Source: Parachlamydiales bacterium
Lineage (GTDB): Bacteria; Chlamydiota; Chlamydiia; Chlamydiales; SM23-39
NCBI GenBank assembly: GCA_963800655.1
Contig: CAWDBT010000002.1
Span: 641,964 to 705,963, forward strand
Direction of reading: 5' to 3'
DNA: 64,000 bases
A program made the translations under genes and the position numbers. The notes under the pieces were generated by a model. The model had not been told where the DNA came from and searched no databases. It saw only the letters and a program-made list of their open reading frames with translations. Within the stretch, counting starts at the first letter, position 1; every line of letters starts with the position of its first letter. Positions 2,634 to 53,362 of the stretch are shown here, in pieces.

Positions 2634-4034
2634 ATGGAACAACCGATGGGAATCTTAAAAATACTGCAATCGATCTGCCGATTTAATTTCGGAATTTTCG
2701 AAAAAGAAGAATTTAAAAAATTCTTAAAAATGGGGGCCGTATTCGCCCTCATCATTGGAATTTATTGGACGCTGCGCCCCTTGAAGGACGCCGTGTTCAT
2801 CCAAATGGTGGGAAAATTCCAACTGCCCTTTGCCAAAACGGTCTCCGTATTGGCGCTGCTGCCGCTCGTGATCTGCTACACGAAACTCATCGAGAAAACA
2901 TCCAGGGAAAAAATGCTGTTCATCCTCCCCGTCTTTTATGGAGCGAGCCTTCTATTGTTCAGCCTGTTGATCCTGGGCTTCCAATCGCCCGTCGAACCGA
3001 CTGCGTCTTTTCTTTGGATCGCCTCGAGGCGCATCATAGGCTACCTGTTCTACGTATTCGTCGAGAGTTTCGGGTCTCTCGTCGTCGCGCTCTTTTGGGC
3101 GTTTGCGACCGATACCACCGATCCAGTTTCTGCAAAACGGGGGTTTCCCCTCGTCGTCGCCATCGGCCAGCTCGGGGGCATTGCATGTCCCTACGGCATT
3201 GGAGGCCTGCCCTGCCGCCTCCATTTGACGACCGACGCCCTCTCTTTGGCCCTTCTCGGATGCCTGACATTCTGCATCGCCTATCTGGTGCGCTATGTCC
3301 TCAGATCGACTCCGAGTCGCCTCATGGCCTCCCTGGCCGGCCCAACCGCCCCGCAATCCCATCGGGAAGAAGAACCCGGCTTTCTGGAAGGCCTTAAGCT
3401 GCTTCTTAAAAACCGCTATCTGCTGGGGATTTTCGCGGTCAATTTCATCTACGAGGTCGTCATCACGATCTTCGATTTCAATTTTAAAATCGCAGCGAGC
3501 CAGCAATATTCGGGCGTCTATTTGAGCAATTATTTAAGCCTCTATGGATCGAGCGTCAATATCGTCTCTTTGTCCTGCCTGCTCTTGGGGATTAGCAATG
3601 TGACCCGCTTTTTGGGAATAGGGTTTGCCCTCGCGGCCATGCCCCTCATCGTCGCTTTCGCCCTCGTCGGGTTTTTAAGCCTCGACAGCCTCGCATTCCT
3701 GTTCATCCTGATGGTCGGATCGAAAGCGGTGAATTACGCCTTAAACGGCCCGGCTCTAAAGCAATTGTACATCCCGACATCGCCGGATGCGAAATTCAAA
3801 GCTCAGGCATGGATCGAAACCTTCGGTTCCCGCTCGTCGAAACAGGCCGGATCGATGTTCAACATGTCTTTAGCCCCTTTGCAAACGGCCTTTGGAAGCG
3901 CCATCGGAAGATCTCACTACCTCGCGCTCAGCGGAATCCTCTGCTTTCCCCTGTTGGCCCTCTGGCTCGCGACGGCGATCTTTTTGAGCAGGTCTTTCCA
4001 ACGGGCTGTCCAAACCAATCGGGCGATCTGCTAA
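2634..4034 (+). CDS. Divergent NTT/TLC-family (ATP/ADP-translocase-like) membrane transporter paralog
   Basis: Multi-TM 466-aa protein. It aligns by eye block-for-block with the N-half of the ntt gene at 20397: EFKKFLKMGAVF..YWTLRPLKDAVF vs ELKKFLPMFLLF..NYTILRDTKDTL, and ESFGSLVVALFWAFATDTTDPVSAKRGFPL vs [30 protein letters not shown]. Confidence 0.75.
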   Translation: MEQPMGILKILQSICRFNFGIFEKEEFKKFLKMGAVFALIIGIYWTLRPLKDAVFIQMVGKFQLPFAKTVSVLALLPLVICYTKLIEKTSREKMLFILPVFYGASLLLFSLLILGFQSPVEPTASFLWIASRRIIGYLFYVFVESFGSLVVALFWAFATDTTDPVSAKRGFPLVVAIGQLGGIACPYGIGGLPCRLHLTTDALSLALLGCLTFCIAYLVRYVLRSTPSRLMASLAGPTAPQSHREEEPGFLEGLKLLLKNRYLLGIFAVNFIYEVVITIFDFNFKIAASQQYSGVYLSNYLSLYGSSVNIVSLSCLLLGISNVTRFLGIGFALAAMPLIVAFALVGFLSLDSLAFLFILMVGSKAVNYALNGPALKQLYIPTSPDAKFKAQAWIETFGSRSSKQAGSMFNMSLAPLQTAFGSAIGRSHYLALSGILCFPLLALWLATAIFLSRSFQRAVQTNRAIC

Positions 4035-4196: not shown

Positions 4197-5474
4197 ATGA
4201 AACGGATTCTTTTTTTTCTCGCGGCAAGCGCTTCCCTCTATTGCAAGCCATTGGATTTATCCGACTGCCTGGCCGAAGGTTTGGCCCATAGCAAAAAACT
4301 CCAAGGCGCCCAAGCGCAGATCCTTTTGAGCGAAGCTATCGCCAATCAGGCTCTCGCTCCGCTTTTGCCCCATTTCGATATAGACGGCAGATATGAATTG
4401 AAAAATCATGGGCGCGATTACAGCGTTTTCACTGAATTCGGCAGCGCGTTTTCCGCTAAGACGATTGGGGTGACCGCTCGCTGGATGCTTTTTGATTTTT
4501 TCTCGTCCTGGAATAAATACCAGGCTGGCAAATGCGACATTCGGATTTCCGAAAAAAATTACCAAAAGCTCAGCTTGCGACTCGAAGAGGAGATCAAAAT
4601 CGCCTACTTCAAACTGCTCCAAAACGAACGCAGCGCAAAGGTCATGGAGGACTCTGCAGCGAGGCTTGAAAAGCAGCTCGCATCCCAGAGAGAACTGTTT
4701 AAGCGAGCCACCGCCTCTTCATCGGATCTTCTCGCTCTCCAAATGCAGCTCATCGAACAGAAAAAGAACCTGCTCCACGCCCACGGCGAAACCATCCAAT
4801 CGAAAATATTTCTAAACTCCCTTTTGGGGCGCAATATCTTTTCCCCTCTGGAACTGGCGGATCTTCCCATCGATAGCTATCCCGAACGATCTTTGGAATT
4901 GATGCAACAGCAAGCGCTATCGAATCAATGCGATATCGCCGTCCTCAATGAGAAGCTCAGATCCCTCGACCATCTATTGAAAAGCGCCCGCGAGGCTTTT
5001 GCTCCCAGCTTGTTCGCCTTCGGAGGCTACCAATATCTCGACGATGCGCCTCCCGCATCCGATTCGTGCCATGACTCCAGCCACAATTGGATTTCCGGAG
5101 GGATCGGGGTAACTTTTTCCCTCTATGACGGGGGCAGGAAGCGCTCGGAGCTTCGAAAAATCGAAGCTCAGATCGCAAGCGTCAGGGCAGATCTCGAAGA
5201 CTTAAAGTACAGCGTCTTAAAAGAAGTAAATCAGCGCTATCTAAAATGCAAGGGAACCCTTGAGACGATCGGACTTGATGGCGATGCAATCCGGCTTGCA
5301 GAAGAAAACGTTCGCGCTGTTTCAGAAAGGTACTCCCAAGGACTCGATTCTCTCGATCTTCTACTCAAAGCCGAACAGGCCTGTATTCGCGCTCAAACCG
5401 CTAAAAATGACGCTATCTACAGCTATCATATCGACCGCGCCCATCTCGAGACTGCACTAAACGGCCTTCTCTGA
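4197..5474 (+). CDS. TolC-family outer-membrane efflux protein
   Basis: Has a signal peptide. The two-repeat coiled-coil/beta-barrel architecture is typical of outer membrane factor proteins (LSDCLAEGLAHSKKLQGAQAQ..., C-terminal ...AKNDAIYSYHIDRAHLETALNG). Confidence 0.85.
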   Translation: MKRILFFLAASASLYCKPLDLSDCLAEGLAHSKKLQGAQAQILLSEAIANQALAPLLPHFDIDGRYELKNHGRDYSVFTEFGSAFSAKTIGVTARWMLFDFFSSWNKYQAGKCDIRISEKNYQKLSLRLEEEIKIAYFKLLQNERSAKVMEDSAARLEKQLASQRELFKRATASSSDLLALQMQLIEQKKNLLHAHGETIQSKIFLNSLLGRNIFSPLELADLPIDSYPERSLELMQQQALSNQCDIAVLNEKLRSLDHLLKSAREAFAPSLFAFGGYQYLDDAPPASDSCHDSSHNWISGGIGVTFSLYDGGRKRSELRKIEAQIASVRADLEDLKYSVLKEVNQRYLKCKGTLETIGLDGDAIRLAEENVRAVSERYSQGLDSLDLLLKAEQACIRAQTAKNDAIYSYHIDRAHLETALNGLL

Positions 5475-5494
5475 TTTTCTAAAGCGATAGTCTC

Positions 5495-5543
5495 AGAGGG
5501 CGTCTATAAAGAGCGGCTTCGTCGATTTTTGTAGACACCCTCT
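5495..5543. repeat. PAL-A palindromic repeat, full hairpin copy
   Basis: AGAGGGCGTCTATAAAGAGCGGCTTCGTCGATTTTTGTAGACACCCTCT. It has 16-nt imperfect inverted arms, and the last bases overlap the stop codon of the minus-strand gene at 5543. Confidence 0.85.
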
Positions 5544-7027
5544 CAACATTCCAAAGCTCGAGCAATTACAATATTGTGATAGATCACTGTCTGTGCAGTT
5601 GGATCATAATAAAAGATAGGGACATCGAAATTGGAGGCATCTTCTTGGAAAGCTTCTCGAATTTGAGAAAGAACGGTTTCATCGAACACAAATCCTTTTC
5701 TTTTTAAGCTATCTTCGAGGGCGACTACAAACTCTGAAATCATCTGCTCTTTATAACCAATATGACATTTGTACACTTGATCCAATAATTGAGAAGTTCT
5801 TATCGGCACAATGCGGGCTTTTTCTCTCTTGAGTTTTTTGCATGCTTCTTCAATTTTTTGGCACACTTCCCGAGATAAGCCTCGAGAAAATTCAGTTGCG
5901 TCTTTTATTCCTAAATTTTCCAAAATTTTGAAATAATTACAAAAAGGTTCGATTCCCATCGAGGGATCAAACCAGATTCTATTGACCCCTGTTTCATCAA
6001 CCCGCCAAGCAGTTCCGTAATTTGGGTCGAAAATCATCGTCGGATCAGAAGTCGCAAACACCTCTGCATCGATGACCGTAGGCTCGCAGTTGCGAACTAA
6101 GATATTTTCATAATGAAGATCGGAAATACCCAACCTAAGCGCAATTTCGTCTAATAAAACAAGCCTTTGAAAATATTCAAAAAATTTATCCGGATCGGAA
6201 AAAGTGTTTTCTTCTTTCTTATTTTCCAAAAATTCACAGTATCCATATGACCCGTTCCTGTCTGATTTGCAAATCACTTTATAAGTTCCAAATCCCGCCA
6301 CTTTCAGCACGCTATCTGTCGTATCGCAAAGAAGCCTCTCGGGTTCCGTAGAACGCGGTTTATAGACGATTTTACGATGATTATCGAATTCGATCAGGAG
6401 GGGAATTCTTCCGCGATTATGAGTTTCGCTTCCAAGAGGATAAATAGTCTTAATAAAATTATTTGGTCCAATCCCTAGACATTTCAATTCGCCTTTTTGA
6501 AGATCGATTTTAATTCGATCCCGAGCCTCATTTACGAATTCTAAATGGTTTGCGCACACTCTATCCACAAACTTCTCTTTTTCAAGAGCGGAAATATTTG
6601 AAAAACTCGAAACATTTGTTACTCGTCCAGTTAAATAAGGAATTAAATTACAAACATCGGATTCTCTAAGATTTTTTTTCGCAAAAGATTCGGCAATCTT
6701 TAGAATTCGCAGATCTATATCTCTTAGCTTTTGGCAATATCTATTGAATAATTTTTTATCAGAACATCCTATCATACCCTTCAAAATCGCGCCTTCTTCT
6801 TTCCGAATCGATTCTATTTTATTTACAAGATCGGAAGAGGAAAACTCCGAGGATTTTTTTAACAAACAAATAACACGGCACGGGAAATTTACGGCAGAAC
6901 ACAGGATCGAGAAAGAAGAAGCGATCACAGATCTTGCAGAACTCAAAGCTAGGCCAACCCCACAAGAGAGCTCTTTCCCACCAAAAAAATAAGGGCAAAT
7001 TAATCTTGCTGAATGTTCAACTGACAT
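5543..7027 (-). CDS. Stand-alone LanM-type dehydratase/kinase-like (DUF4135-like) domain protein; effector candidate
   Basis: The motif LGISDLHYENILVRNCEPTVIDAEVF matches the DxHxxN catalytic loop plus downstream metal-binding Asp of class II lanthipeptide synthetase dehydratase domains. There is no LanC cyclase part. The gene is AT-rich relative to its flanks. I chose the start at MSVEHS (7027); the ORF is open to 7084. Confidence 0.55.
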   Translation of the reverse strand: MSVEHSARLICPYFFGGKELSCGVGLALSSARSVIASSFSILCSAVNFPCRVICLLKKSSEFSSSDLVNKIESIRKEEGAILKGMIGCSDKKLFNRYCQKLRDIDLRILKIAESFAKKNLRESDVCNLIPYLTGRVTNVSSFSNISALEKEKFVDRVCANHLEFVNEARDRIKIDLQKGELKCLGIGPNNFIKTIYPLGSETHNRGRIPLLIEFDNHRKIVYKPRSTEPERLLCDTTDSVLKVAGFGTYKVICKSDRNGSYGYCEFLENKKEENTFSDPDKFFEYFQRLVLLDEIALRLGISDLHYENILVRNCEPTVIDAEVFATSDPTMIFDPNYGTAWRVDETGVNRIWFDPSMGIEPFCNYFKILENLGIKDATEFSRGLSREVCQKIEEACKKLKREKARIVPIRTSQLLDQVYKCHIGYKEQMISEFVVALEDSLKRKGFVFDETVLSQIREAFQEDASNFDVPIFYYDPTAQTVIYHNIVIARALEC

Positions 7028-7133
7028 ATTAACCCGCGCTGTTAATTTATTATTTATTATAACATTTAAATTAATTATAAACAAAAGATTAAATTAACAC
7101 AAAAACACATGTCGCTTATAGCGAATAACTTGC

Positions 7134-7206
7134 GCTTACAACGAAACCGCTTCAAGAATCGGTCTTGGACTGCGCTAAAGCGGTTCTTGAAGTAGTTTCG
7201 GTATAT
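7134..7206. repeat. PAL-B palindromic repeat, full hairpin copy
   Basis: TTACAACGAAACCGCTTCAAGAATCGG...loop...CGGTTCTTGAAGTAGTTTCGGTATA. The arms are about 25 nt. Confidence 0.85.
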
Positions 7207-7243
7207 TCGAAAATTTCGATGCGATGGGGAACCCCAAAAAGGG

Positions 7244-7909
7244 TCATGCCGGATGGGTCAGCTTTCCATCGGTCAGATGGATTTGCCGATCGGCCATATT
7301 GGCAAACTCAGGGTCATGGGTGACGAGGACAATCGTCGAGGACAGCTCCTTCTTCGCCTTAAATAGAATGTCGATGACCAGCTTGGCATTGGCGGAGTCC
7401 AAAGAACCGGTCGGCTCGTCGGCGAAAATATACTTGGGAGACATGACCAAGGCGCGGGCAATCGCGACCCTTTGCGCTTGTCCCCCCGAGAGCTGCCTCG
7501 GCAAATGGCGGATCTTTTCTTTCAGATCCAATTGCTCCAGCAAGTGGAGCGCGAAATCCCTTTTTTCCTTGGCGCGGTTTTCTCTGCGAGCGGGAAGCAG
7601 GACATTTTCCAATGCGGAAAGCTCGGCGATGAGGTAATGAAATTGGAAGACAAAGCCCGCTTTTCGGTTGCGGAAATCGCAGATCTCTTCGACGCTCATC
7701 TCTTCTATTTTTCTCCCATCGATCTCGATGGAGCCGAAAGAGGGCTTGTCGAGGGTGCTCAATAAGTACAAAAGAGTGCTCTTGCCCGATCCCGATTTCC
7801 CGGTGAGCGCGATGAATTCTCCATTCGCGATCTCCAGATCGATCCCGCTCAATATATCCGCGGGGGGATCTTCGATCCGTTTGCCCGCTTTGATAGCTCG
7901 AATTCCCAT
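7244..7909 (-). CDS. ABC transporter ATP-binding protein (MacB/LolD/DevA type)
   Basis: Walker A GKSGSGKST, signature LSGGQAQRVAIARAL, Walker B IFADEPTGSLD. There is a 1-nt start/stop overlap with the permease gene. Confidence 0.92.
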   Translation of the reverse strand: MGIRAIKAGKRIEDPPADILSGIDLEIANGEFIALTGKSGSGKSTLLYLLSTLDKPSFGSIEIDGRKIEEMSVEEICDFRNRKAGFVFQFHYLIAELSALENVLLPARRENRAKEKRDFALHLLEQLDLKEKIRHLPRQLSGGQAQRVAIARALVMSPKYIFADEPTGSLDSANAKLVIDILFKAKKELSSTIVLVTHDPEFANMADRQIHLTDGKLTHPA

Positions 7910-9135
7910 TAGTCGGCTCCAGAGCGAATGATTTCAATCGGAGTTAGTTTTTTTGCGAAACGAGCCGGAAAAAAGCTCGAGACCCCGGAAGCGATCAATC
8001 CCAATAGGATTGCATCGATGTAAATGTCCGCGCCGAAATAGAGCGAGCAAAACTCCGGCGGCAGAGATTTTTCGATGCCGACCGAGATAACATAGCCAAA
8101 CCCCGCTCCCAACAGCCCCCCCAGCAATCCAAGGATCATCCCTTGAGACACAAAGAGCAGCATGATGCTCCCCGGGCGATACCCGAGAGATTGCAGGATG
8201 GCGATATCTTTTTTCTTTTGCACAACGGACATGTTGAGGACGTTGTAGATCCCGAATCCGGCGACGAGCATCGTGATCCCCGTGACCGAGAACCGAATGA
8301 GATCGTTGATCGCAAACGCCCGAAAAACCCCGGCAAAAAGCTCCTGCCAGCTCTCTATTTTTTCTCTTCCGAGACAGCTCCAGGCGGACGCGATGCTAGA
8401 CGCCTGGGAGTGATCGCGCAGCTTGACCGCGATTTCATTGATGCAATTCGGTTGTTTGGCCGCCCCTTGCACATCCTCCAACAACCCATAGGCGCACAGA
8501 TCGAGCATGTAATTCTTCGATTTGAAGATCGCAGCGATTTTAAACGGGACGGGGGGATTCTGAGAGATCGATACCATGACGGTCTGATTCAATTTTACGT
8601 TGAGCTGCTGGCGCAAAGCCTCTCCGATCGCAAGGCGGTTGCCGCCGATTGCAATTCCCTCGAAAGATCCCTGCGTGATGTGCCGTTTGAGGTCTCTGAC
8701 CGCCGTCTCCTGTTCGGGATAACATCCGATCAAAGAAGAAAATGCGTCTTCCTTTCCTTTGGAAAAAGAGGCCATCGCAGACAGCCTCGGAGAATGCGAC
8801 TCCACTCTGGAATCGGCCCCGAAGAGCGCGATCCATTTTTTCGGATTGTCTATCCCTTCGCTTTTCTCATGTTTCACGGGGGGCGAAAGCCAAGAGACCC
8901 CGAGATCCTCGGGATAAAAAAACCGGTTTAGCTCGTCTTCTCGTATGGGCTGTTTTTGAGATCTGATATAAAGATGCGCTTCGTTGCTGATCAGCTCCTT
9001 CATGAAATACTCCCGCCAGCCCAATAAAAGGCTGGATAGAGCGACGAATCCGCACGTCCCTAAAACGATCCCCAGCAGGATAAAACACGTCTGTTTTTTC
9101 CTGGCCAGCATGTAGCGAAACGCCAACGAAATCAT
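7909..9135 (-). CDS. ABC transporter permease, FtsX/MacB/LolCE (DevC-like) family
   Basis: N-terminal TM, a large periplasmic domain, and a C-terminal 3-TM FtsX-type module (ILQSLGYRPGSIMLLFVSQGMILG). Confidence 0.88.
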   Translation of the reverse strand: MISLAFRYMLARKKQTCFILLGIVLGTCGFVALSSLLLGWREYFMKELISNEAHLYIRSQKQPIREDELNRFFYPEDLGVSWLSPPVKHEKSEGIDNPKKWIALFGADSRVESHSPRLSAMASFSKGKEDAFSSLIGCYPEQETAVRDLKRHITQGSFEGIAIGGNRLAIGEALRQQLNVKLNQTVMVSISQNPPVPFKIAAIFKSKNYMLDLCAYGLLEDVQGAAKQPNCINEIAVKLRDHSQASSIASAWSCLGREKIESWQELFAGVFRAFAINDLIRFSVTGITMLVAGFGIYNVLNMSVVQKKKDIAILQSLGYRPGSIMLLFVSQGMILGLLGGLLGAGFGYVISVGIEKSLPPEFCSLYFGADIYIDAILLGLIASGVSSFFPARFAKKLTPIEIIRSGAD

Positions 9136-9926
9136 CGTTTCTCCAAGGGCGAAGAAAGGAGCAGCTCGTCTCCTTCCCGAAGATCCGACGAGAGGACCTC
9201 CGCCATATTTCCATCGGAAATCCCGATCCGGACTGCAATGGGAAGCACCGCATCCGCGCGCTTGACGAAGACCTGGTTTTTATCGATCGCGTTCATCGGA
9301 ATCATCAAGATGTCGGAATGCTCTTTGATCTCGATCGAAAGATCGGCCGTCATCCCCGGGAGGATTTTCTCGGGCAAATCCCCTATATCCACTCTGATGC
9401 GGAATTTATTTTGGCAAGGATAGATAGCCGCTACGGTGCCGTTGAAGACCTCGCCCCTAAGCGATTCAAAGCTCAGCTTCACGGCCTGCCCTTTGCAAAC
9501 TCGCATGGCGCTTTTTTGATCTAGAACCGCCGCGATGTAGCGATCGCAAAGATCCGTCAATTCCAAGATATTCGATGCGGAGAACACGGTTTCTCCCTCG
9601 TGGCAGAAAACGGCCGTGACGGTTCCCGAAAAAGGCGCCGTAAAAAGGGTTTCCTGCTGCGCCAGCTTATCGCCTTGCTCCACTCGGTCGCCTTCCTTGA
9701 CGAAAAGAGCTTTGAGATTCCCCGTGACTCCGGTTTTCAACAGGTAATTTTTATTGGCCGCCACCGTCCCTATGCCATAGACGCATTCCATCATCGTCCC
9801 CTTCGAGACGACGTGGGAAAACGAGGCTTTTTGCGTTCCGCCTTTGGCTATCGATACATAACCCAGCCAAATCGCAAAAACAAAAATTAAGGAACAAAAA
9901 ACCTTATGTCTTTTTATCCATCCCAT
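9132..9926 (-). CDS. Periplasmic adaptor (HlyD/MFP, DevB-like) subunit
   Basis: N-terminal anchor, a lipoyl-like motif (FVKEGDRVEQGDKLAQ...APFSGTVTAV) and beta-barrel regions. It overlaps the permease gene by 4 nt. Confidence 0.8.
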   Translation of the reverse strand: MGWIKRHKVFCSLIFVFAIWLGYVSIAKGGTQKASFSHVVSKGTMMECVYGIGTVAANKNYLLKTGVTGNLKALFVKEGDRVEQGDKLAQQETLFTAPFSGTVTAVFCHEGETVFSASNILELTDLCDRYIAAVLDQKSAMRVCKGQAVKLSFESLRGEVFNGTVAAIYPCQNKFRIRVDIGDLPEKILPGMTADLSIEIKEHSDILMIPMNAIDKNQVFVKRADAVLPIAVRIGISDGNMAEVLSSDLREGDELLLSSPLEKR

Positions 9927-15010: not shown

Positions 15011-15960
15011 GAATAGATCTTTAGCTTTCTGTTTTTGACTGTGCGGCAAATGCCGAAGGCGATCGGATAAAGAACCCCGAGAAGGGCGGAGACCATCCCC
15101 CCGGTCGAAAGAGCCAGCCCATAGACGGATAAAATGTGGCGGGCCAATGCGACGCCGACGATGGAAACGAGAGCGCCGATCGACACTGCGGCGATCAATA
15201 AAATGTGGAGGCGGTGCGAAAACAGCCTGGCGATTAAATACGGCCCTACGAGAAAAGAAAGCACGAGGAGCACTCCTACGATCCGAAACGCGCTGATGCA
15301 GCTGACGGCCGTCAATCCGAGGAGCAGAGCCTGGAGCCAATTGCACTTTCCCCCGAGGGAACTGAGATGCCCGCTGTCGAAACACGAGTATTTCAACGGA
15401 ACATAGCAGAGCAAAATAGCCGTAGCGCTGATCCCGGCGAGAATAGCTCCCATATATAGGTCCTCCATTCTCAAGGCGTCAGGATTGCCGGTCACGGCCT
15501 CGACGCCGAGATGCACGTCCCGCGTAAATACCGTCACGAGGGCGACGCCAAGGGCAAAAAGAGCCGTGAAGACGAGGCCGATGCTCGCGTCTTCCTGAAG
15601 GCGGAGCCATTTATGGATCGCAAACGTCAGCCCCACGGTCAAAAGAGCGGCGGCCATCGCGCCGGGCAAGAGATAGGGAAATCCGAGAGCGCCGTGTTGA
15701 ACTGCAAAAATCGAAGCGAAGCAAATATAGCTGAGTGCGATTCCGAGCAGAACCGTATGCGCGATCGAATTGGCGAGCATCGCCAGCTTCTTCAGGACGA
15801 GGAACGGCCCCAGCATCCCGCAGGAAATGGCCACAGAGACCAATACGAAGATCTGCAGTTCATCCGCTGCTATCGCCGTCTGTCCGGTGACGACGAGTGG
15901 AAAGCGAGCGGCGAATGTCGCAAAAAACTGCCAAAAATCGCAATCCCAGTAGGGCGCCAT
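15007..15960 (-). CDS. ytgD: Metal (Fe/Mn/Zn) ABC transporter permease, YtgD/TroD type
   Basis: ABC-3 family multi-TM permease, last gene of the ytg block. Confidence 0.88.
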   Translation of the reverse strand: MAPYWDCDFWQFFATFAARFPLVVTGQTAIAADELQIFVLVSVAISCGMLGPFLVLKKLAMLANSIAHTVLLGIALSYICFASIFAVQHGALGFPYLLPGAMAAALLTVGLTFAIHKWLRLQEDASIGLVFTALFALGVALVTVFTRDVHLGVEAVTGNPDALRMEDLYMGAILAGISATAILLCYVPLKYSCFDSGHLSSLGGKCNWLQALLLGLTAVSCISAFRIVGVLLVLSFLVGPYLIARLFSHRLHILLIAAVSIGALVSIVGVALARHILSVYGLALSTGGMVSALLGVLYPIAFGICRTVKNRKLKIYS

Positions 15961-17276
15961 CAGAGATCCTCTCTTTGAGGAATCGGCTGGCTGTGCGGGT
16001 CGACTTTCGGATCGAACAGATAAACGGCAAGCCGAGCCTCCAATTCAGGAGTCAGGATGTGCTCCATTTCTTCAGCGGTTCGATGCACCTGGGCCTCCGG
16101 CCAGCCGAGATCGGCGAGATAGACTTCCCAAAGGCGATGTAGGCGGACGATCCTGGCGGCTCTTCGCATCCCGTCGGATGATAAAGCATATGCGCCTTGA
16201 GAGCGGATCATCCAGCCGTTTCTTTGCATTCGATACAGGAGCGGATAAAACAACCATAGAGGCAGGCGATGGGAATCCCTCAGGCCCCGCAAACAAACGG
16301 TTTGTTTCTTCCACAATTCCTTTAATACATTCTCCTCGATGCATCGCAGCTTGAAGCCGAGGATTTTGAACAGGCGCGCCGCCACGCCGCGCTTCGGGGC
16401 GAATAGAAGCGATGCGATCGCGATGAAAGAACCGATTAATACGATCATCGGCCCTGTCGGCAGCGAGCATCTGACTCCGCTTGCCTCATCGCTCAGTCCG
16501 ATCGAAGCTTCGACGGAAATCCAGTTGCCCAAAAATCCGCTGGCAATCCCGAATGCGGCGGCCAGGGCGAACATCGTTCCGAGCCGGTTGGTGAATTGCC
16601 TCGCCGCCGCTGCGGGAGCGATCGACATGCCGGACATCAAAATGACGCCTGCGCTTCGGATGCCCACGACGATCGAGAGCAGCAAGAGAAAACAGACGGC
16701 TTGAGGCATCCAACGGGGAAATGCCTTGGCCGTCATCGAAAATTCGGGATCGAACAGCATGGCTTGGAGCGGGCGGTAAGCGAACCAGATAAATAAGCCG
16801 ATGCAGACTGCGAGAACGGCGTAAATCGCAACATGCGCATCGGTCATCGTGGCCGCCTGCCCGTAGAGATACGTCTGCACCTGCCTCGCATAGGCGGGAT
16901 AAATGCTTTGCAATGCGCTGAAAATCAAAACTCCTATGCCGAAAAAAGAGGCGAGGAGAAAACAAAGCGCCGCATCGCTGCAAATGCGCCGTTTTTTCTC
17001 CAGCCATTCGAGAACATACAGGCCGATCAGCGAGCACGCAAGGGCTCCTCCCATCGAAAAAAACAGCCCTGAATCCCCCGCGTTGCCGAATCCGGCCAAT
17101 GCGCAAATGCCCATTCCGATCACTACCCCCGGATATGCGGCATGGGAAAGAGCTTCTCCCAAAAGAGATCTCTTTTGCAGGAAAACAAGCGTCCCGATAA
17201 GAGCGGAGGACAAACCCATCAGCATGCAACCCAAGGTAGGCGCTCGAAGAACGGGATCGAAGAAATAAGAAAACAT
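15960..17276 (-). CDS. ytgC: Metal ABC permease fused to a C-terminal DtxR-like repressor domain (YtgC-YtgR)
   Basis: ABC-3 permease (about 290 aa) followed by a DtxR-type dimerisation/metal-binding segment (RLHRLWEVYLADLGWPEAQVHRTAEEMEHILTPELEARL...DPHSQPIP). This fusion is a known chlamydial hallmark. Confidence 0.88.
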   Translation of the reverse strand: MFSYFFDPVLRAPTLGCMLMGLSSALIGTLVFLQKRSLLGEALSHAAYPGVVIGMGICALAGFGNAGDSGLFFSMGGALACSLIGLYVLEWLEKKRRICSDAALCFLLASFFGIGVLIFSALQSIYPAYARQVQTYLYGQAATMTDAHVAIYAVLAVCIGLFIWFAYRPLQAMLFDPEFSMTAKAFPRWMPQAVCFLLLLSIVVGIRSAGVILMSGMSIAPAAAARQFTNRLGTMFALAAAFGIASGFLGNWISVEASIGLSDEASGVRCSLPTGPMIVLIGSFIAIASLLFAPKRGVAARLFKILGFKLRCIEENVLKELWKKQTVCLRGLRDSHRLPLWLFYPLLYRMQRNGWMIRSQGAYALSSDGMRRAARIVRLHRLWEVYLADLGWPEAQVHRTAEEMEHILTPELEARLAVYLFDPKVDPHSQPIPQREDL

Positions 17277-17280
17277 AGCC

Positions 17281-18044
17281 CTACTCCAATCCGCTCGGAA
17301 CTTTCACGGAAAGCGCTGTCGCCTCGCCAAATAAGCTGTGTTCTTTGCCGAACGCTCGCTCCAAATAACAAGGAGCGTATGTTTCGAGAACAGGTCCGCA
17401 TGCGATCAGGCGGCGGTTGATCAAAATCAGCCAATCGAAGTACTGCTTGGCCATCGGAAGATCGTGGAACACGATCAAAATCGTTTTTCCTTTCTCCCTA
17501 AGAGACTGCAACAAAGCGATGATCGCTTTTTCCGTCGCGAGATCGACTCCTGCAAACGGTTCATCCATGAGCAAGATCTCGGGATCCTGGACGAGCGCGC
17601 GGGCGATGAAAAGGCGCTGCTGCTGGCCGCCCGAAAGCTGGCTGATCTGGCGGTCTGCGAACTCCGACATCCCCACTTGCGCAAGAGCTCTTCAGCGGCT
17701 TCTATATCGGCTTGGCGCGGACGTCCGAACAGGGTGAATTGCGCATAGCGGCCCATTAGAACGACGTCGAGAGCGCAGATCGGAAAATCCCAATCGACCG
17801 ATTCCCTTTGCGGCACATAAGCGATTTTCTTTCTCATCGCTTCGAGAGGCGATCCGAAAAATCGCACCTTTCCCGACATCGACGGCACAAGGCCGATGGC
17901 CGCTTTGAGCAACGTGCTTTTTCCTGCTCCGTTAGGGCCCGCGATCCCGCATAAAATCCCGCTCGGCAAAGACAAGGACAGATCCCAAAGCACCGGCGTC
18001 TTATCATAGCTGACAGTCAATCCATCGATCTCAATCGCTTTCAT
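17281..18044 (-). pseudogene. ytgB: Metal ABC transporter ATPase YtgB, split by a single frameshift (real or assembly error)
   Basis: ORF 17475..18044 carries Walker A (GPNGAGKST) and goes off-frame after ...ADIEAAEE. ORF 17281..17676 continues with VGMSEFADRQISQLSGGQQQRLFIARAL..LLMDEPFAGVD. The span is 764 nt (3n-1), so one base is missing near 17680-17695. Confidence 0.85.
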
Positions 18045-19132
18045 AGTTCGCCTTCCGACAAGTGGGTTGCAATGACATCCGCATTATGGCGCATCATCTC
18101 TAAATAATGGAGATTTTCCCCATCCATTGCATCTCCATAAAGCGGCTCTTCGCAAATGCGCACCGCGAGACCCGTCTCGCGTCCGGCAGAGACGATCTTG
18201 CGGATCGAATCGCGGCTCACATTCGTTTCGGGGAAAATGACGCGGATTCGATGCAGGCGGATATAATCGATGATCCGCTGAATATCGACGGAACTCAATT
18301 GGCCGTCGGGAGCGAGGCCTTCCGGAGCTGCAAAACGCGATCTCCAGTCTTTTTCTTCGGCTTCGGCCAAATAGCTCCTAGTAAAATATTGAAATGCATC
18401 GTGGCTGGTCACAAGATAGCGGCTCTTAGCCGGAACAGCTCTGAGCTTCTCTTTGAGTTCGAAATGCGCTTCCCGCATTTTTTCTATTACGGCAGCAGCC
18501 CTTCCGAGATAAAATTCCCTGCCTTCCGGATCGATCTCCGAGAGCCGCTCCGCGATCGGAAGAGCCCCTTGGCTCCAAAGGGAAATATCCATCCAAACGT
18601 GGGGATCGATCGAGGAGCCTTTATATAGGATGCGCTCCGGAGAGGAGAGGCGGATCCGATCCCCTACGGAAACGGCTTTCTGACTCCCCCGCAGCCACTC
18701 GGATAAACTCGCCCCGTGCTCTAGGCCCAGGCCGTTATAAAAAATGAGATCCGCGCGCTGCAAGACCTCATCGTCTCCCTTGACGAGCTCATAACTATGG
18801 GGATCGAGAGTCCCTTGGATGAGAACCCTCGCCTCGAGGCGATCCCCACCTATCTCGGACGTCAAGTCCCCTATCTGCGCCGTTGTGCAAAGAATTTTTT
18901 TCTTACCGTTCTCCGCCATCCAGCTCCTAATAGCTTCTCTCGAACCAGATCTCGTCCGACATCCCGAAATAATGGCAAATAAAAGAATAAAAACCGCGAG
19001 CGATTTGAAAAACCGATTCCAAATTACGCCCGTCTGGATTCTAGATTTTTTTTGACAAGCCTTCCGCTCGATATTCGATTCAAAAACTCGCAAAACCCAA
19101 TGAAACTTAATTTGTAGATGGTCTCTGAACAT
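18041..19132 (-). CDS. ytgA: Metal-binding periplasmic lipoprotein YtgA (TroA/ZnuA family)
   Basis: Cluster-9 solute-binding fold (DPHSYE, DPHVWMD motifs) and a lipobox-like LFAIISGC. The true start may lie downstream of the ATG at 19132. Confidence 0.87.
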   Translation of the reverse strand: MFRDHLQIKFHWVLRVFESNIERKACQKKSRIQTGVIWNRFFKSLAVFILLFAIISGCRTRSGSREAIRSWMAENGKKKILCTTAQIGDLTSEIGGDRLEARVLIQGTLDPHSYELVKGDDEVLQRADLIFYNGLGLEHGASLSEWLRGSQKAVSVGDRIRLSSPERILYKGSSIDPHVWMDISLWSQGALPIAERLSEIDPEGREFYLGRAAAVIEKMREAHFELKEKLRAVPAKSRYLVTSHDAFQYFTRSYLAEAEEKDWRSRFAAPEGLAPDGQLSSVDIQRIIDYIRLHRIRVIFPETNVSRDSIRKIVSAGRETGLAVRICEEPLYGDAMDGENLHYLEMMRHNADVIATHLSEGEL

Positions 19133-22516: not shown

Positions 22517-22540
22517 TAGAGGGTGTCTACAAAGAGCGGC
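22517..22540 (+). repeat. PAL-A repeat, half copy
   Basis: TAGAGGGTGTCTACAAAGAGCGGC preceded by ACTACTT. It is followed by an unrelated hairpin (GGCTGCGCA...TGCGCAGCC). Confidence 0.75.
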
Positions 22541-22678
22541 TGCGCAGAACTCCTCTTATGCGCAGCCAAACTCGAATCCGGAGAAAAACCAAGATCGAAT
22601 AAAAAATAATTTTAACCCTTATTTTTTTATATTCAATCCGATATAATTTTGCCGAACTTTAACTAACCAGTCATCACA

Positions 22679-24262
22679 ATGACCGTTTCTCCAGCCTCAT
22701 CCCATCCTCTTGCCGGTTATAGATTTTCAAACGGCGACACGCCGCTCCATCACGCGATCGAGACTTCCAATCTGCCCCTCCTCAAAAGGGTGATCGAAGC
22801 CGGATTTCCCTTAGAGGAACGAAATGCTTTCAATCTAACTCCTTTTCAACTGGCGGTCTCTCAAAAAAAAATCGATATGGCCGAGCAAATCGCACGCCAT
22901 CTGATCGAGAGCGAGTTTTCCTTAGAAAACCGCCCTGCGATCGAACAACAGCTAAGCCTTTTTAAACAGCAAAAAAGCTTTTATCAATCGCAAACCCGCC
23001 TATCGGAAACGACGCCTCCTCTCCATCTAGCTGCTGCGGTTGGCGATCTAAAATCCCTCCGAGACGCCTATCCCGCATCGCTGCACATCCCCGATAGAGA
23101 CGGGCGCACCCCTCTCGAATATGCGATCATTTTTGGACAAACCAACGCGGCGGCATTCCTGATCGAACATGGTTTCTCGCCGGATTTAACAGTCGGCCTC
23201 GCCGCTTTGAATCAAAAGGCTTCCCTTTATCTCGCCGCCTTGTTCAATCGGGTCGAAATTTTCAAATCTCTTCTCGATAAAGGACTCGATCCCAATCTGC
23301 CTAACTATGCTGGATGGACGCCGGCTCAATGCTTTGCCGCTTCCTGCGATTCTCTGGAAAGTTTGCTCGCGATCAAAGAGATGGGAGCTTCCCTATCGAC
23401 TCCATCGAACATGTCTCCCGCGGCGATTTTCCTCATCCGACAATTCCCTCCCGCTTCCCTCGTCTCTATGGCAGATGCCGTACTGGCTGGAACAAATGCG
23501 GTCAAACTGGCATTGCTCTATTGCTTTTACTCCCTTGCAAGTCAAGAAAACCCCGGATGGGGAACCTATGGCCTCAACAGTTTGCTCATCCCCGCTTTGG
23601 CGGCGACTTACCTCTTCCAGCAAACGCAAATTTTTTCCCTCTGCCCAGAACATTTGAGGGAGGAAACTAAATCCCACACACACCCAGGGTCGATCGTCTC
23701 GTCGGGAATCAGCTCTTCCGTATCGAGCTTCCTCCTGCCTACCGGCTGGTCGTGGATCTTCGTCGCTCCCGGCGTAAGCACCTATGCGATCGGGCGATCT
23801 TGCCTATCGAAAATCAAAACCGCCTGTTCGCAGATCTTCAATCGCCCGGCAGCCGCTCTCGGAGCGACCGCTTTGCATCTATTCAACGGAGCTGCAGTTG
23901 CAGGAGACGTATACCACGCCTACCGATTCCTAAATTGGGTCCGGACAAACCCATTGATTCAAGCTCCCTACAGGGAAAAACTCCGTTCCGAAACTTGTGA
24001 TTTCAAAGCGGGCGCACCCATCGACGCAGGCATCGTTCAACGCGCCAAATTCTGCGCCGCCCCCCCGGGAGAACACTTCAACGAATGGCTCTACAGCTCT
24101 CATCCGAAAGAATATCTGGCAAAAATTACAGAAACTTTCTCACGCAGCGAGGATGTTGCGGATTGCAAGCCCCTATCGACGATGGCTCTGTCAATCCGGA
24201 TCTTTCCCGCTGGACGGGGAAAAAGTGCGATTCGGATGATTTCGATCTTTGGTCGCAAATGA
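22679..24262 (+). CDS. Ankyrin-repeat protein with C-terminal paired hydrophobic (Inc-like) segments; effector candidate
   Basis: ANK repeats (GDTPLHHAIETSNLPLLKRVIEAGFPLE; PPLHLAAAVGDLKSL; DGRTPLEYAIIFGQTNAAAFLIEHG). Then two TM pairs with short loops (AVLAGTNAVKLALLYCFYSLA-SQENPGWGTYG-LNSLLIPALAATYLF). Confidence 0.85.
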   Translation: MTVSPASSHPLAGYRFSNGDTPLHHAIETSNLPLLKRVIEAGFPLEERNAFNLTPFQLAVSQKKIDMAEQIARHLIESEFSLENRPAIEQQLSLFKQQKSFYQSQTRLSETTPPLHLAAAVGDLKSLRDAYPASLHIPDRDGRTPLEYAIIFGQTNAAAFLIEHGFSPDLTVGLAALNQKASLYLAALFNRVEIFKSLLDKGLDPNLPNYAGWTPAQCFAASCDSLESLLAIKEMGASLSTPSNMSPAAIFLIRQFPPASLVSMADAVLAGTNAVKLALLYCFYSLASQENPGWGTYGLNSLLIPALAATYLFQQTQIFSLCPEHLREETKSHTHPGSIVSSGISSSVSSFLLPTGWSWIFVAPGVSTYAIGRSCLSKIKTACSQIFNRPAAALGATALHLFNGAAVAGDVYHAYRFLNWVRTNPLIQAPYREKLRSETCDFKAGAPIDAGIVQRAKFCAAPPGEHFNEWLYSSHPKEYLAKITETFSRSEDVADCKPLSTMALSIRIFPAGRGKSAIRMISIFGRK

Positions 24263-29338: not shown

Positions 29339-30049
29339 CTAAACACCTTCTTGCACATATTCAGAAATTAAAAACTCATAATTAGCTGGTTCTATGCCGT
29401 TAAACGGATGAAAACAAAAATGTTTTGCCCGTTTACTCGATCCAATCCAGAATTCAGCTCCCAAATGACCGAACGCATTTTGCTGTGGCAAGGCCGCATG
29501 TGGAAGGATCTCACTCCCGGCATTTTCCTGAATCAACTCGTGATTCAGCGCCCGAATATGAGATGAAGTCGCCCACCAATACGTCCCGCTATAGTGAGGC
29601 CAATGGCCTAAAAATGTAGCTTCGCGATATAAAACTCCGGCCGTATCATAGCCTTCTTTGAGTTTGGCGACACACTTTTCCCATTGGTAAAGAACATGAT
29701 AGTCCATCATCATCCGCCAAAGTTCGGAAATATACGACTGGCGCCACACTCCTTTCGAATGAAAATAACAAATGTAAGCGTCTGTTTTCTGGGCAAATTC
29801 CAACAAAATTCGCATCGTATTTTTCTCTCTAAGAGATATATCAGAAAATCCGCAAACTTGAATTTTATCATATTTCGATACTAATTTCTGGAGCCACTCG
29901 AAATCCTCAGGTCTCTCATACCCCACACCAAGAAATAGAGAATCGGATTGATCGTAGAGACCTGAAATAAATACTTTTGTAAGCTGATCTTGGATTCTAA
30001 ACTTAAAATCATTCGTCAAAAATACGTGATAAAAAACAGCTATTTTCAC
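29339..30049 (-). CDS. Island paralog A of an uncharacterised ~235-aa family (putative glycan-modifying enzyme)
   Basis: Shares the N-terminus MKIAVFYHVFLTNDFKFRIQDQLTK and the motif HWPHYSGTYWWATSSHIRALN with the genes at 30238 and 31098. The start is set at the GTG giving MKIAVFYHV. The gene is AT-rich. Confidence 0.7.
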   Translation of the reverse strand: MKIAVFYHVFLTNDFKFRIQDQLTKVFISGLYDQSDSLFLGVGYERPEDFEWLQKLVSKYDKIQVCGFSDISLREKNTMRILLEFAQKTDAYICYFHSKGVWRQSYISELWRMMMDYHVLYQWEKCVAKLKEGYDTAGVLYREATFLGHWPHYSGTYWWATSSHIRALNHELIQENAGSEILPHAALPQQNAFGHLGAEFWIGSSKRAKHFCFHPFNGIEPANYEFLISEYVQEGV

Positions 30050-30237
30050 AACCACCTTTTTATAAAAAAATTAAATTAATAAACCATTTTTTTAGATTTT
30101 TATTATCGCAAGCAACGAGATATTTCTAATATTGCACCTCTTGCGATTACAAAAAACAATCATCTTTCGCATAGAAAAAATTCGATTTTTGAAAATACAA
30201 AAAAACAACATTAAATCACTAAAAAGATATATTGAAA

Positions 30238-30936
30238 TCATAAATATTCAAAAATACAATGCTCAATTAAATATGGATTTGTTGCTTTAAGCGGATAGAA
30301 ACAGAAATTCTTAGAATTCCGTCTCGATCCGATCCAAAATTCGGCTCCCAAACGATCGAACGCATCTTGCTCTTGCGGAGACGCATGAGGAAGGATCACG
30401 CTCCCAGCATTCCGCTGAATCAACCTGTGATTGAGAGTCCGAATATGGGACGAAGTCGCCCACCAATACGTCCCGCTGTAGTGAGGCCAATGGCCTAAAA
30501 ATGTATCTTCGCAATATAGAATTCCGGCTGTATCATAGCCTTCTTTAAGTTTGGCGACACACTGTTCCCATTGGAAAAGAACGTGATAATCCATAATCAT
30601 CCGCCAAAGACTCGAATTATATGACTGATGATAGAGTCCCTTGGAATGAAAATAACAAATAAAGGCCTCTTGATGATCGCAAAATTGAGATATCAGCATC
30701 ATTGTATGTTTTTCTGCCAACTCTCCATTTTTAAAACCAACCAGTTTAATTTTTTCATATTTAATAAAAAGCCTTTTCAACCAAAAAAAATCATCGTCCC
30801 GATAATAAACAGCCCCAATAACAACAGAATCGCATTTCTCATAAAGACCAGAAACAAATAGCTTCAAAAACTGATCTTGCACTAGAAACTTAAAATCATT
30901 TACTAAGCATACATGATAAAAAACAGCTGTTTTCAT
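30238..30936 (-). CDS. Island paralog B of the same family
   Basis: MKTAVFYHVCLVNDFKF...HWPHYSGTYWWATSSHIRTLN. The C-terminal half is near-identical to paralog A at the DNA level, while the N-terminal half is divergent. Confidence 0.7.
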   Translation of the reverse strand: MKTAVFYHVCLVNDFKFLVQDQFLKLFVSGLYEKCDSVVIGAVYYRDDDFFWLKRLFIKYEKIKLVGFKNGELAEKHTMMLISQFCDHQEAFICYFHSKGLYHQSYNSSLWRMIMDYHVLFQWEQCVAKLKEGYDTAGILYCEDTFLGHWPHYSGTYWWATSSHIRTLNHRLIQRNAGSVILPHASPQEQDAFDRLGAEFWIGSRRNSKNFCFYPLKATNPYLIEHCIFEYL

Positions 30937-31097
30937 AAAAAACCAATAAAATATCATTTAAAATACAAAACTTTGTCGTTTTTTAGACACTTTCTTATTT
31001 TTAAAACATTGACTGGTTGATATATTATATTTATCGAAAATGAACCTATTCGGAATGCACAAACCCACCCCAACTTCCAAAGATTTTAAAATTAAGA

Positions 31098-31796
31098 TCA
31101 TAAATAACTAGAAATATCATATTCAAAAAAATACGGCTCTATTCCATTAAACGGATAAAAACAGTAATGCTTAAAATCAGGCCTCGAGCCAATCCAAAAT
31201 TCGGCTCCCAAATGAGCGAACTCATCTTGCTTTTGCGCAGACGCATACGGAAGTATAATTCTTCCGGCGTTCTGCTGAATCAAGCCGTGATTCAGCGCTC
31301 GAATATGAGATGAAGTCGTCCACCAATAACCCCCGCTATAGTGAGGCCAATGGCCTAAAACTGTGGCTTCGCGATATAAAATTCCCGCCGTATCATAGCC
31401 TTTTTCGAGCTTCGCGACACACTTTTTCCATTGGAAAAGAACGTGATAGTCCAAAATCATCCGCCAAAGATCGCAAGCATAAGACTGCTGCGACACTCCT
31501 TTTAAATGAAAATAAAAAATGTAAGCATCGTTTTGATTTGCAAAATCCAACAAAACTCGCATCGTATTTTTCTCTCTAAGGGATGGATTAGAAAATCCAC
31601 AAACTTTAATTTTATTATATTTCGATACTAAATTTTGAAGCCAATCGAAATCCTCAGGCCGCTCGTACCCGGCTCCAAGAAATAGAAAATCGCATTGATC
31701 GTAGAGGCCGGAGATAAACAATTTTGTAAGCTGATCTTGAATTCGAAATTTAAAATCGTTCGTCAAAAATACATGATAAAAAACAGCTATTTTCAT
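31098..31796 (-). CDS. Island paralog C of the same family
   Basis: MKIAVFYHVFLTNDFKFRIQDQLTK...HWPHYSGGYWWTTSSHIRALN. By eye it is roughly three quarters identical to paralog A. Confidence 0.7.
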   Translation of the reverse strand: MKIAVFYHVFLTNDFKFRIQDQLTKLFISGLYDQCDFLFLGAGYERPEDFDWLQNLVSKYNKIKVCGFSNPSLREKNTMRVLLDFANQNDAYIFYFHLKGVSQQSYACDLWRMILDYHVLFQWKKCVAKLEKGYDTAGILYREATVLGHWPHYSGGYWWTTSSHIRALNHGLIQQNAGRIILPYASAQKQDEFAHLGAEFWIGSRPDFKHYCFYPFNGIEPYFFEYDISSYL

Positions 31797-31914
31797 AAAA
31801 ACCTTTTATAAAAAAACCAACAACAAATACACCTAAAAAATCTTTGAATTAAGATATGCTCTTAGACTAGACAACTCGTTCTGAGATCAAAATCCGACCT
31901 CGAGTCAAAGCAGC

Positions 31915-37874: not shown

Positions 37875-37926
37875 ACAAGCCATGTTTTATTTTTTTCAAA
37901 ACATAGCGACTATTATTATTAAAAAT

Positions 37927-40287: not shown

Positions 40288-40356
40288 CTATGCCGAAACT
40301 ACTTAGAGGGTGTCTACAAAGAGAAACTTCAGTCGTTTTTGGTAGACATCCTCTCA
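40288..40356. repeat. Chimeric repeat: PAL-B 5' fragment fused to a full PAL-A hairpin
   Basis: CTATGCCGAAACTACTT + AGAGGGTGTCTACAAAGAGAAACTTCAGTCGTTTTTGGTAGACATCCTCT. The last bases form the stop codon of ftsI. Confidence 0.85.
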
Positions 40357-53319: not shown

Positions 53320-53362
53320 GCGGTTTATACCGAAACTACTTCAAGAATCGGTTTCGGTATAG
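53320..53362 (+). repeat. PAL-B repeat, short form
   Basis: GCGGTTTATACCGAAACTACTTCAAGAATCGGTTTCGGTATA. The left arm is shared with the copy at 55185, and it folds as a 10-bp hairpin. Confidence 0.8.

Follow-up and report, generated by a model that had tools for sequence, protein, structure and literature searches.

What does a stand-alone relative of the lantibiotic synthetases do in a chlamydial genome? The question is raised by a minus-strand gene in a 64,000-nucleotide stretch of contig CAWDBT010000002.1 from a Parachlamydiales bacterium (this whole stretch is termed the window), which encodes a protein resembling the dehydratase domain of LanM, the class II lanthipeptide synthetases, and which lies between a convergent tolC gene and an exporter operon. 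An initial annotation of the sequence had offered two readings of this gene, a horizontally acquired, secreted kinase-like effector or the modifying enzyme of an unrecognised peptide-export module. We find that the gene encodes a cyclase-less DUF4135 protein in which all catalytic positions are filled, that it was inserted beside an older exporter locus, and that relatives of its product are repeatedly coupled to secretion devices. From sequence comparisons we judge it roughly an even call that the protein is secreted, is anchored in a membrane and works as a Ser/Thr dehydratase on proteins of the host.

A cyclase-less LanM-type protein with a filled active site

The minus-strand open reading frame (ORF) at 5543..7084 encodes 513 residues from a TTG start, while the ATG at 7027 gives a 494-residue protein (5543–7027), which is how the protein is recorded in the protein database and whose N-terminus aligns with that of the closest homologue. 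This protein is almost certainly a LanM-type member of the DUF4135 domain family: the Pfam DUF4135 profile matches with 91.1 bits against a cut-off of 29 (E = 1e-25, profile positions 6–184 of 378), and no second Pfam domain is found within the 494 residues. It belongs to DUF4135 and not to the full LanM class; TIGR03897, the LanM model, gives 70.8 bits against a cut-off of 304 and matches over model positions 99–271 of 932, a score that falls far short because the cyclase half is missing.

A sequence search of the PDB with the single protein returns CylM as the sole match, and a family profile built from 11 members aligns to CylM residues 161–573. The AlphaFold2 (AF2) model of the 494-residue protein (pLDDT 74.8, pTM 0.71, core above 85) is closest, in a Foldseek search of the PDB, to CylM (5dzt; E = 3e-12, TMq 0.52) and then to LicM2 (6st5; E = 1e-9), with protein and RIO kinases far behind; the predicted structure is of the lipid-kinase-like type seen in CylM. 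With the dehydratase domains of CylM and LicM2 the window protein shares a homologous fold and sequence, a P-loop (D/E)xH, the lysine of a YKP(K/R) motif, DxHxxN, a DxE metal ligand, the paired R...T elimination residues and a D(I/V)PIFY motif. The stand-alone LanM-type kinase/dehydratase identity given in the initial annotation is thus borne out by the profile search, the aligned catalytic residues and the predicted structure; the gene is not a core chlamydial one.

The features of the gene product are listed below, with residue equivalences counted along the family-profile alignment to CylM and conservation counted in 60 full-length stand-alone representatives clustered at 50% identity.

5543..7027, minus strand: stand-alone LanM-type (DUF4135) protein of the Ser/Thr kinase/dehydratase type, 494 residues (Pfam, profile alignment, AF2 model)
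6857..7027, minus strand: N-terminal module, residues 1–57 (Kyte-Doolittle hydropathy, pLDDT, position of the transmembrane (TM) segment in relatives)
6410..6427, minus strand: P-loop E201-T-H203-N-R-G206; E201 equals CylM D252 and H203 equals H254, kept in 57/60 and 58/60
6359..6361, minus strand: K223 in the VYKPRS motif, equal to CylM K274, which activates the ATP gamma-phosphate; kept in 60/60
6062..6121, minus strand: catalytic loop D303-L-H305-Y-E-N308 and metal ligand D320 (IDAE), from the profile alignment; kept in 59–60 of 60
5795..5815, minus strand: R405-IVPIR-T411 of the kinase-activation domain, equal to CylM R506 and T512; kept in 58/60 and 55/60
5606..5626, minus strand: C-terminal motif D468-V-P-I-F-Y-Y, which aligns with CylM DIPIFY (about residues 563–569)

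The motif quoted in the initial annotation, LGISDLHYENILVRNCEPTVIDAEVF, is located at residues 298–323 of the 494-residue protein, and within it D303, H305, N308 and D320 correspond to CylM D347, H349, N352 and D364. All nine catalytic positions of CylM are filled in the window protein, D252 by a conservative swap to Glu, and they are kept in 55–60 of the 60 stand-alone representatives; the protein ends about 20 residues past DVPIFYY. Mutagenesis of CylM identifies K274, D347, H349, N352 and D364 as phosphorylation residues, finds D252, H254, R506 and T512 to be needed for phosphate elimination, and establishes that CylM(1–625), which lacks the cyclase, dehydrates efficiently alone (PMC4550811). 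The case for a LanM-type identity is therefore stronger than first noted, since the four phosphate-elimination residues align besides the D/H/N/D set; these four are also kept in 40–43 of 43 second-tier proteins. The active site as aligned probably makes a catalytically competent dehydratase, and we consider it fairly likely that the enzyme carries out both steps, phosphorylation and then elimination.

The window protein differs from CylM in having no LanC cyclase, no capping helices (5–131) and no k-alpha10/11, and its kinase-activation domain is about 57 residues shorter, with 84 as opposed to 141 residues between D320 and R405. It also departs from LanM proteins in its putative membrane segment at the N-terminus and in its occurrence in Chlamydiota, and unlike LanM systems its gene is accompanied neither by a precursor peptide nor by LanT or an immunity gene. 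That a cyclase and a Cys-containing precursor are absent, as noted earlier, is upheld: besides the failure of TIGR03897, a crude proxy for LanC (the motifs WCxG or CHG) is absent from all window ORFs of at least 200 residues, and a filter for Cys-containing, Ser/Thr-rich small ORFs across 5400–7300 returns as its sole match an out-of-frame ORF inside the DUF4135 gene itself. Neither a C39 peptidase nor YcaO is found among the neighbouring genes scanned with Pfam. With no LanC proxy and no credible precursor ORF, we reject a cyclase/precursor context of the kind expected for a peptide made on ribosomes and modified after translation (RiPP).

An accessory family of chlamydiae

A word-indexed search returns 13 relatives, all of 395–579 residues except a 791-residue fusion to eCIS_core (P0012), and none has a cyclase; one of them, a 47%-identical paralogue, lies on the same 719-kb contig outside the window. 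In an exhaustive profile search, 94 cluster representatives score below E = 1e-30, and about 78 of these match end to end at around 500 residues, while true LanMs (about 1000 residues) appear only from E of about 1e-23. Among species-representative genomes, full-length members come only from metagenome-assembled genomes (MAGs) of Chlamydiota and from a single MAG with the label Verrucomicrobia; those of Chlamydiota belong to Neptunochlamydia, Rhabdochlamydiaceae, Anoxychlamydiales and unclassified Chlamydiia and Chlamydiales. Parachlamydia sp. AcF125 contributes another member and carries a second copy at a distance of 3.5 kb.

The gene exceeds its surroundings in AT content at most family loci, with differences reaching 14 points, and this, together with the transposase remnants that separate the two AcF125 copies, fits a mobile accessory gene. 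The AcF125 locus itself (L001 10001–16778) holds the two paralogues on either side of DDE transposase fragments, beside a type II secretion operon, and the pair is flanked by paralogous ORFs of about 141 residues with a hydrophobic C-terminal tail. Family neighbourhoods at other loci are unrelated to that of the window, and a metagenome scan adds 8 more family loci with no new chaperone association. In a Neptunochlamydia MAG (L005 6910–9092), a chaperone-like gene and the DUF4135 gene both seem to be split by frameshifts (ORFs 7538–7996 and 7869–9092), which could reflect pseudogenisation or long-read assembly errors.

The searchable part of the literature on DUF4135 or LanM proteins with chlamydiae or effectors contains no description of a stand-alone chlamydial family. 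One paper on Algichlamydia took the annotation of a lanthionine synthetase gene to point to the production of lantibiotics; the Algichlamydia MAG carries a divergent 397-residue DUF4135 gene (L014), which may be the same gene, and a lantibiotic reading is unlikely for the stand-alone family.

Relatives are linked to chaperone-like genes, injection systems and giant-virus-like contigs

We compared neighbouring ORFs at the family loci all against all, taking as the base for chaperone counts the 12 bacterial loci with visible upstream DNA. The sole recurrent neighbour is a tetratricopeptide repeat (TPR) protein of 190–244 residues, encoded upstream on the same strand at four loci (L003, L005, L009 and L015) and within 2 kb at a fifth (L002), for a total of 5/12. 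Its best NCBIfam match is the SycD/LcrH family of type III secretion system chaperones (E = 1e-15 to 3e-25), and the only natural proteins in the PDB that it matches end to end are SycD, AcrH, PcrH and a 178-residue chain named 'Chaperone SycD' (4nrh_B). Class II chaperones of this kind serve type III secretion (T3S) substrates that carry TM segments, and the chaperone-linked members with a readable N-terminus (L003, L005, L009 and L015) all carry N-terminal TM segments.

Such segments are common in the family, with 15/60 members having a strong and about 33/60 a moderate TM segment at residues ~35–70, often with an (H/N)P motif before it and basic residues after it. Most members have a single segment; those of L009, P0005 and L004 look bilobed, and P0004 and a clade on virus-like contigs have no TM segment at all. 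In the window protein, residues 1–48 form a low-confidence head (pLDDT below 50) that is probably disordered, and residues 23–57 a Ser-rich hydrophobic segment ending in LLKKSS, with a maximal 19-residue Kyte-Doolittle score of 1.67 at 38–57; by position this segment matches the single TM helix of many relatives.

A second link is to extracellular contractile injection systems (eCIS). The nearest outgroup consists of proteins of 740–840 residues with an N-terminal eCIS_core domain (DUF4157); the domain is present in the relatives P0012, P0090, P0092 and P0098. At one locus (L019 6226–9960), the last two genes of an eCIS-like operon with an AAA ATPase both encode eCIS_core proteins, and DUF4135 is the C-terminal cargo of the final one. 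The window protein itself has no Pfam match to eCIS_core, and Pfam searches of the neighbouring genes find no eCIS genes around the window copy.

A third link comes from four contigs of Joint Genome Institute (JGI) metagenomes (L024, L025, L028 and L029), AT-rich and encoding a tight clade of 572–588 residues with a strongly basic N-terminus and, at the C-terminus, an extension rich in Pro and Ser. These genes lie between PCNA and an RFC-like AAA gene, near PEPCK, phospholipase B and the minor capsid protein P8 of nucleocytoplasmic large DNA viruses (NCLDV), and the clade nests inside the chlamydial family in a rough, unbootstrapped neighbour-joining (NJ) tree. A scan of IMG/VR and a fold search of BFVD give no close viral homologue, so that the giant-virus assignment rests on the gene context of the contigs. 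This clade suggests exchange between giant viruses and chlamydiae and, as read from the contigs, suggests that the enzyme can work inside a eukaryotic cell without a bacterial partner; there no bacterial substrate would be available to it.

The gene is an insertion beside an older exporter locus

The surroundings of the gene in the window are as follows.

4197..5474, plus strand: TolC-like outer membrane efflux protein (OEP), by Pfam; convergent with the DUF4135 gene, context
9132..9926, 7909..9135 and 7244..7909, minus strand: exporter operon of a membrane fusion protein (MFP), a MacB/FtsX permease and an ATP-binding cassette (ABC) ATPase, by Pfam; upstream, context
5450..7262, no strand: AT-rich insertion of about 1.8 kb (blastn against L020, gene map of L020/L021, composition)
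5495..5542, no strand: PAL-A hairpin between the stop codons of tolC (plus) and the DUF4135 gene (minus) (fold energy, repeat counts)
7127..7215, no strand: PAL-B hairpin between the stop codon of the ABC ATPase gene (7244) and the promoter region of the DUF4135 gene (fold energy, repeat counts)

These neighbours are as first described, a convergent tolC and, upstream on the same strand, an MFP-permease-ATPase exporter, which ends 216 bp from the DUF4135 gene and is of the MacB/FtsX type without a C39 domain. The AT-richness claimed for the gene also holds: its GC content is 37.8%, with 32.3% at third codon positions (GC3), against 50.3% GC in the rest of the window and a GC3 of 56–72% in neighbouring genes.

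A related genome gives the state of the locus without the gene. Contigs L020 and L021 (GC 48.9%, with a gene for a topoisomerase-SWIB fusion) carry a 58%-identical orthologue of the TolC-like protein, and on them the OEP and ABC ATPase genes overlap tail to tail with nothing between, followed by a 408-residue permease and a 264-residue MFP whose lengths equal those in the window. By blastn, window 4359–5449 corresponds to L020 10166–11241 and window 7263–9803 to L020 11272–13812; about 1.8 kb of the window (5450–7262) thus stands in place of about 30 bp, and the span of the insertion from intergenic region to intergenic region is 5475–7243. Because tolC and the exporter abut in the relative, we take the DUF4135 gene to be a 1.8-kb insertion whose link to the exporter is accidental, and because the two overlap tail to tail there, the exporter locus predates the gene. 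Both composition and the empty site support horizontal acquisition of the gene by its lineage, as the initial annotation had suspected.

Coupling to the exporter is rejected on the empty site in L020/L021 and on the neighbourhoods at more than 20 loci; most family loci have no exporter, and the exporter type is not kept across loci. At two loci (L017 462–7123 and L030 98–3200), the family gene converges on the end of a resistance-nodulation-division (RND) efflux operon (AcrB-MFP-OEP), a setting that resembles the efflux neighbourhood in the window; this may be coincidence or may reflect preferred insertion spots at such gene ends.

Both hairpins that bracket the gene are real, and their bracketing had been over-read. 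PAL-A folds with −27.6 kcal/mol on the plus strand (z −6.8) and −22.3 on the strand of the gene (z −4.3), and is likely a bidirectional terminator or an element like the repetitive extragenic palindromes (REP). PAL-B folds with −27.6 kcal/mol (z −2.9) and is followed by a small terminator-like stem (7124–7112) and an extremely AT-rich stretch (7040–7100); as these three precede the ATG of the gene, they argue for separate transcription, and they probably insulate it from the exporter operon. A promoter scan gives 6 sites against 5.0 expected. The window holds 11 matches to the PAL-A arm against 0.9 expected and 5 to the PAL-B core against 0.01 expected, and both are GC-rich, intergenic, REP-like hairpin families dispersed at gene ends across it, and therefore not specific to the DUF4135 gene. 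Copies of PAL-A lie at 5495–5542, 22518–22556, 40305–40353, 53106, 61666 and 62834–62872, and copies of PAL-B at 7127–7215, 53324–53358 and 55190–55258. The occurrence of both families at many gene ends in the window leads us to reject them as the ends of a mobile element.

A proposed host-directed dehydratase and its alternatives

In the reading we prefer, the N-terminal ~60 residues, i.e., the disordered head and the hydrophobic segment, would direct type III export and tether the protein to a host-derived (inclusion) membrane; its catalytic domain would point into the host cytosol, which contains ATP, and would modify host proteins there. The kinase core would bind ATP/Mg2+ via K223, N308 and D320, D303 and H305 would phosphorylate a Ser/Thr hydroxyl, and E201, H203, R405 and T411 would eliminate the phosphate to give dehydroalanine or dehydrobutyrine. 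Since there is no cyclase domain, the dehydro-residue would be the end product, and the change would be irreversible, destroying a phosphorylatable site. Enzymatic activity, secretion of the window copy, its membrane topology and its host substrate are what we infer here, and host-protein modification is more likely than antibiotic production because relatives adjoin T3S chaperones, eCIS toxins and giant-virus genes. The secreted effector of the initial annotation is favoured by these chaperone genes, TM segments, eCIS_core fusions and giant-virus-like copies in relatives.

More tentatively, and with less than even confidence, we suggest that chlamydiae, eCIS bacteria and some giant viruses might share a hitherto unrecognised class of host-directed, self-sufficient Ser/Thr dehydratases derived from the kinase domain of lantibiotic synthetases, delivered in chlamydiae by T3S with a SycD-like chaperone and an inclusion-membrane anchor. 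Host phosphosites would then be permanently erased and reactive dehydroalanine or dehydrobutyrine created by a one-enzyme counterpart of the route that combines a host kinase with OspF/SpvC, and the enzymes would supply, in nature, the dehydro-amino acids whose detoxification is ascribed to the LanCL proteins of eukaryotes.

Several observations weigh against the preferred reading. No chaperone gene is present beside the window copy or anywhere in the window, 7/12 bacterial loci have no chaperone-like neighbour, and the TPR proteins, members of a common class, score 57–88 bits against a cut-off of 104.8 for TIGR02552. The hydrophobic segment of the window protein is marginal (with the maximum of 1.67 given above) and contains Arg, Pro and Asn, and the basic residues that follow the TM segment in the family fit anchoring in the bacterial inner membrane, toward the bacterium's own cytoplasm, equally well. 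The giant-virus assignment comes from gene context, and the tree is an NJ tree with no bootstrap. The shorter kinase-activation domain and the missing capping helices and k-alpha10/11 mean that the activity might differ from that of CylM.

Some of these points would equally suit a non-secreted, housekeeping-type enzyme, TM-anchored in the chlamydial inner membrane and dehydrating or phosphorylating bacterial proteins or peptides, for which the bacterial cytoplasm supplies the needed ATP and in which the stretches LLKKSS, YRSRKH and RRYQDKK after the segment obey the positive-inside rule; the loci lacking a chaperone neighbour fit it too. We regard this as unlikely, if a serious alternative, since the gene is accessory, AT-rich and inserted and not part of a core, SycD/LcrH-like genes recur upstream in relatives, eCIS cargo and giant-virus-like contigs, where there is no bacterial substrate, include homologues, and several members, among them P0004 and the viral clade, lack any TM segment. 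A delivered effector that skips elimination and acts as a kinase only, with protein Ser/Thr or a lipid (e.g., a phosphoinositide) as its substrate, is improbable: loss of elimination is hard to reconcile with the elimination-specific residues being kept in 55–58/60 stand-alone and 40–43/43 second-tier proteins, even though the fold resembles lipid kinases and phosphatidylinositol 3-kinase-related kinases (PIKK), one eCIS relative has a weak PI3_PI4_kinase match, the shortened kinase-activation domain might impair elimination, and Zhang et al. (PMC3482391) proposed plain S/T phosphorylation for the toxin versions.

Strongly atypical composition, a degenerate hydrophobic segment and the Neptunochlamydia copy that seems split in two ORFs (L005) could also mark a functionless, recently acquired passenger heading for decay; the frame of 494 residues is intact with all catalytic residues, however, the 47%-identical paralogue is retained in the same genome, and active-site conservation across the family points to strong purifying selection, which makes this very improbable. 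No more credible, and largely refuted, is a RiPP or peptide-export enzyme that would work with the MFP-permease-ATPase and TolC to export a dehydrated linear peptide. Its appeal lies in the position of the gene, 216 bp downstream of the exporter on the same strand and convergent with tolC, in the RND efflux operons adjoining L017 and L030, in the existence of DUF4135 enzymes without lanthionine products, e.g., CcaM of the dehydrazoles (PMC10676384), and in the lantibiotic production read from an annotation in the Algichlamydia paper. The empty site in the relative, where tolC and the exporter overlap tail to tail, places the locus before the gene; a stable hairpin and a terminator-like stem separate gene and exporter; no precursor ORF or LanC proxy is found in the window, nor C39 or YcaO among the scanned neighbours; and the exporter type does not recur, with most loci having none.

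Comparison with known systems

The closest precedent for a host-directed dehydratase of this kind is the 'Tox-Peptide Kinase' toxin domain that Zhang et al. listed in 2012 from Firmicutes, with secretion of the PVC type (PMC3482391), likewise a LanM-type kinase domain that has no cyclase and serves as a delivered toxin/effector module. Its motif string recurs in the window protein as ETH, VYKPRS, DLHYEN, DAE and R405/T411, with ExH instead of DxH. The Tox-Peptide Kinase proteins, of 740–840 residues, carry an N-terminal eCIS_core (PVC-metallopeptidase) and are loaded into contractile injection systems, whereas the window protein has no eCIS_core and its family shows TM segments and T3S-chaperone neighbours; the proposal of 2012 was for phosphorylation only (PMC3482391). 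As judged from our comparisons, the stand-alone family is a distinct, mainly chlamydial clade, with the eCIS fusions as its sister group or outgroup.

The outcome proposed for the window enzyme is the same as that of OspF, SpvC and HopAI1, T3S phosphothreonine lyases through which a Ser/Thr phosphorylation site of the host irreversibly becomes a dehydro-amino acid. These lyases have an unrelated fold, resembling the lyase domain of LanL and not the LanM kinase, and they act only on residues already phosphorylated by host kinases, whereas a LanM-type domain carries out both steps. For delivery the parallel is with the chlamydial Inc proteins and with CopB/CopD, T3S substrates with hydrophobic segments, the class II chaperones being Scc2/Scc3: here too an unstructured N-terminal region precedes the hydrophobic segment(s), and in family relatives a SycD/LcrH-type TPR chaperone gene lies immediately upstream. 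Inc proteins differ in having a bilobed domain, as opposed to the single TM segment of most family members, and the window copy has no adjacent chaperone.

CcaM (LanMbC) is a further DUF4135 enzyme without lanthionine ring products; its products keep dehydro-residues without the rings, and it is leader-peptide independent (PMC10676384). CcaM keeps a zinc-free class III cyclase domain that is needed for activity and belongs to a YcaO RiPP cluster with a precursor, none of which is present here.

To our knowledge, LanM-type protein dehydration is known only from the biosynthesis of peptide antibiotics, and an effector able to dehydrate proteins by itself would be chemically surprising. The cyclase-less form had been noted once, in silico, as a toxin domain assumed to be a kinase only (PMC3482391). 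We find that its stand-alone form makes up a sizeable family that keeps the elimination machinery, has moved by horizontal transfer among bacteria that live inside protists and, apparently, among giant viruses as well, and is repeatedly coupled to secretion devices. With these findings, the vague annotation ('DUF4135', 'lanthionine synthetase') gives way to a testable hypothesis on new effector chemistry, and the tempting misreading of chlamydiae with such genes as lantibiotic makers is corrected.

Other features of the window

Judged by gene content the window is chlamydial: it encodes an NTT/TLC nucleotide transporter (2634–4034), a fusion of the YtgC-YtgR type (15960–17276, minus) that joins an ABC-3 permease to the C-terminal domain of an iron-dependent repressor, and a 527-residue ankyrin-repeat protein (22679–24262, plus). 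A ZnuA/YtgA-like binding protein (18041–19132, minus) is encoded near the YtgC-YtgR fusion. The genes fit an environmental chlamydia, and a GC content of about 50% is unusually high for the phylum.

A 1493-residue orphan ORF of normal composition (48426–52907, minus) contains no Pfam domain at all. A third AT-rich island (37182–37883, minus; 35% GC and a GC3 of 31% in surroundings of about 52% GC) encodes a 233-residue protein with no Pfam match. A further island of 33–42% GC (29436–31801) consists of three tandem units of about 870 bp, 84–85% identical over 300 nt, and encodes paralogous proteins of about 230–240 residues (30238–30957 and 31098–31796, both minus) with no Pfam match; it looks like another accessory or effector-like gene array.

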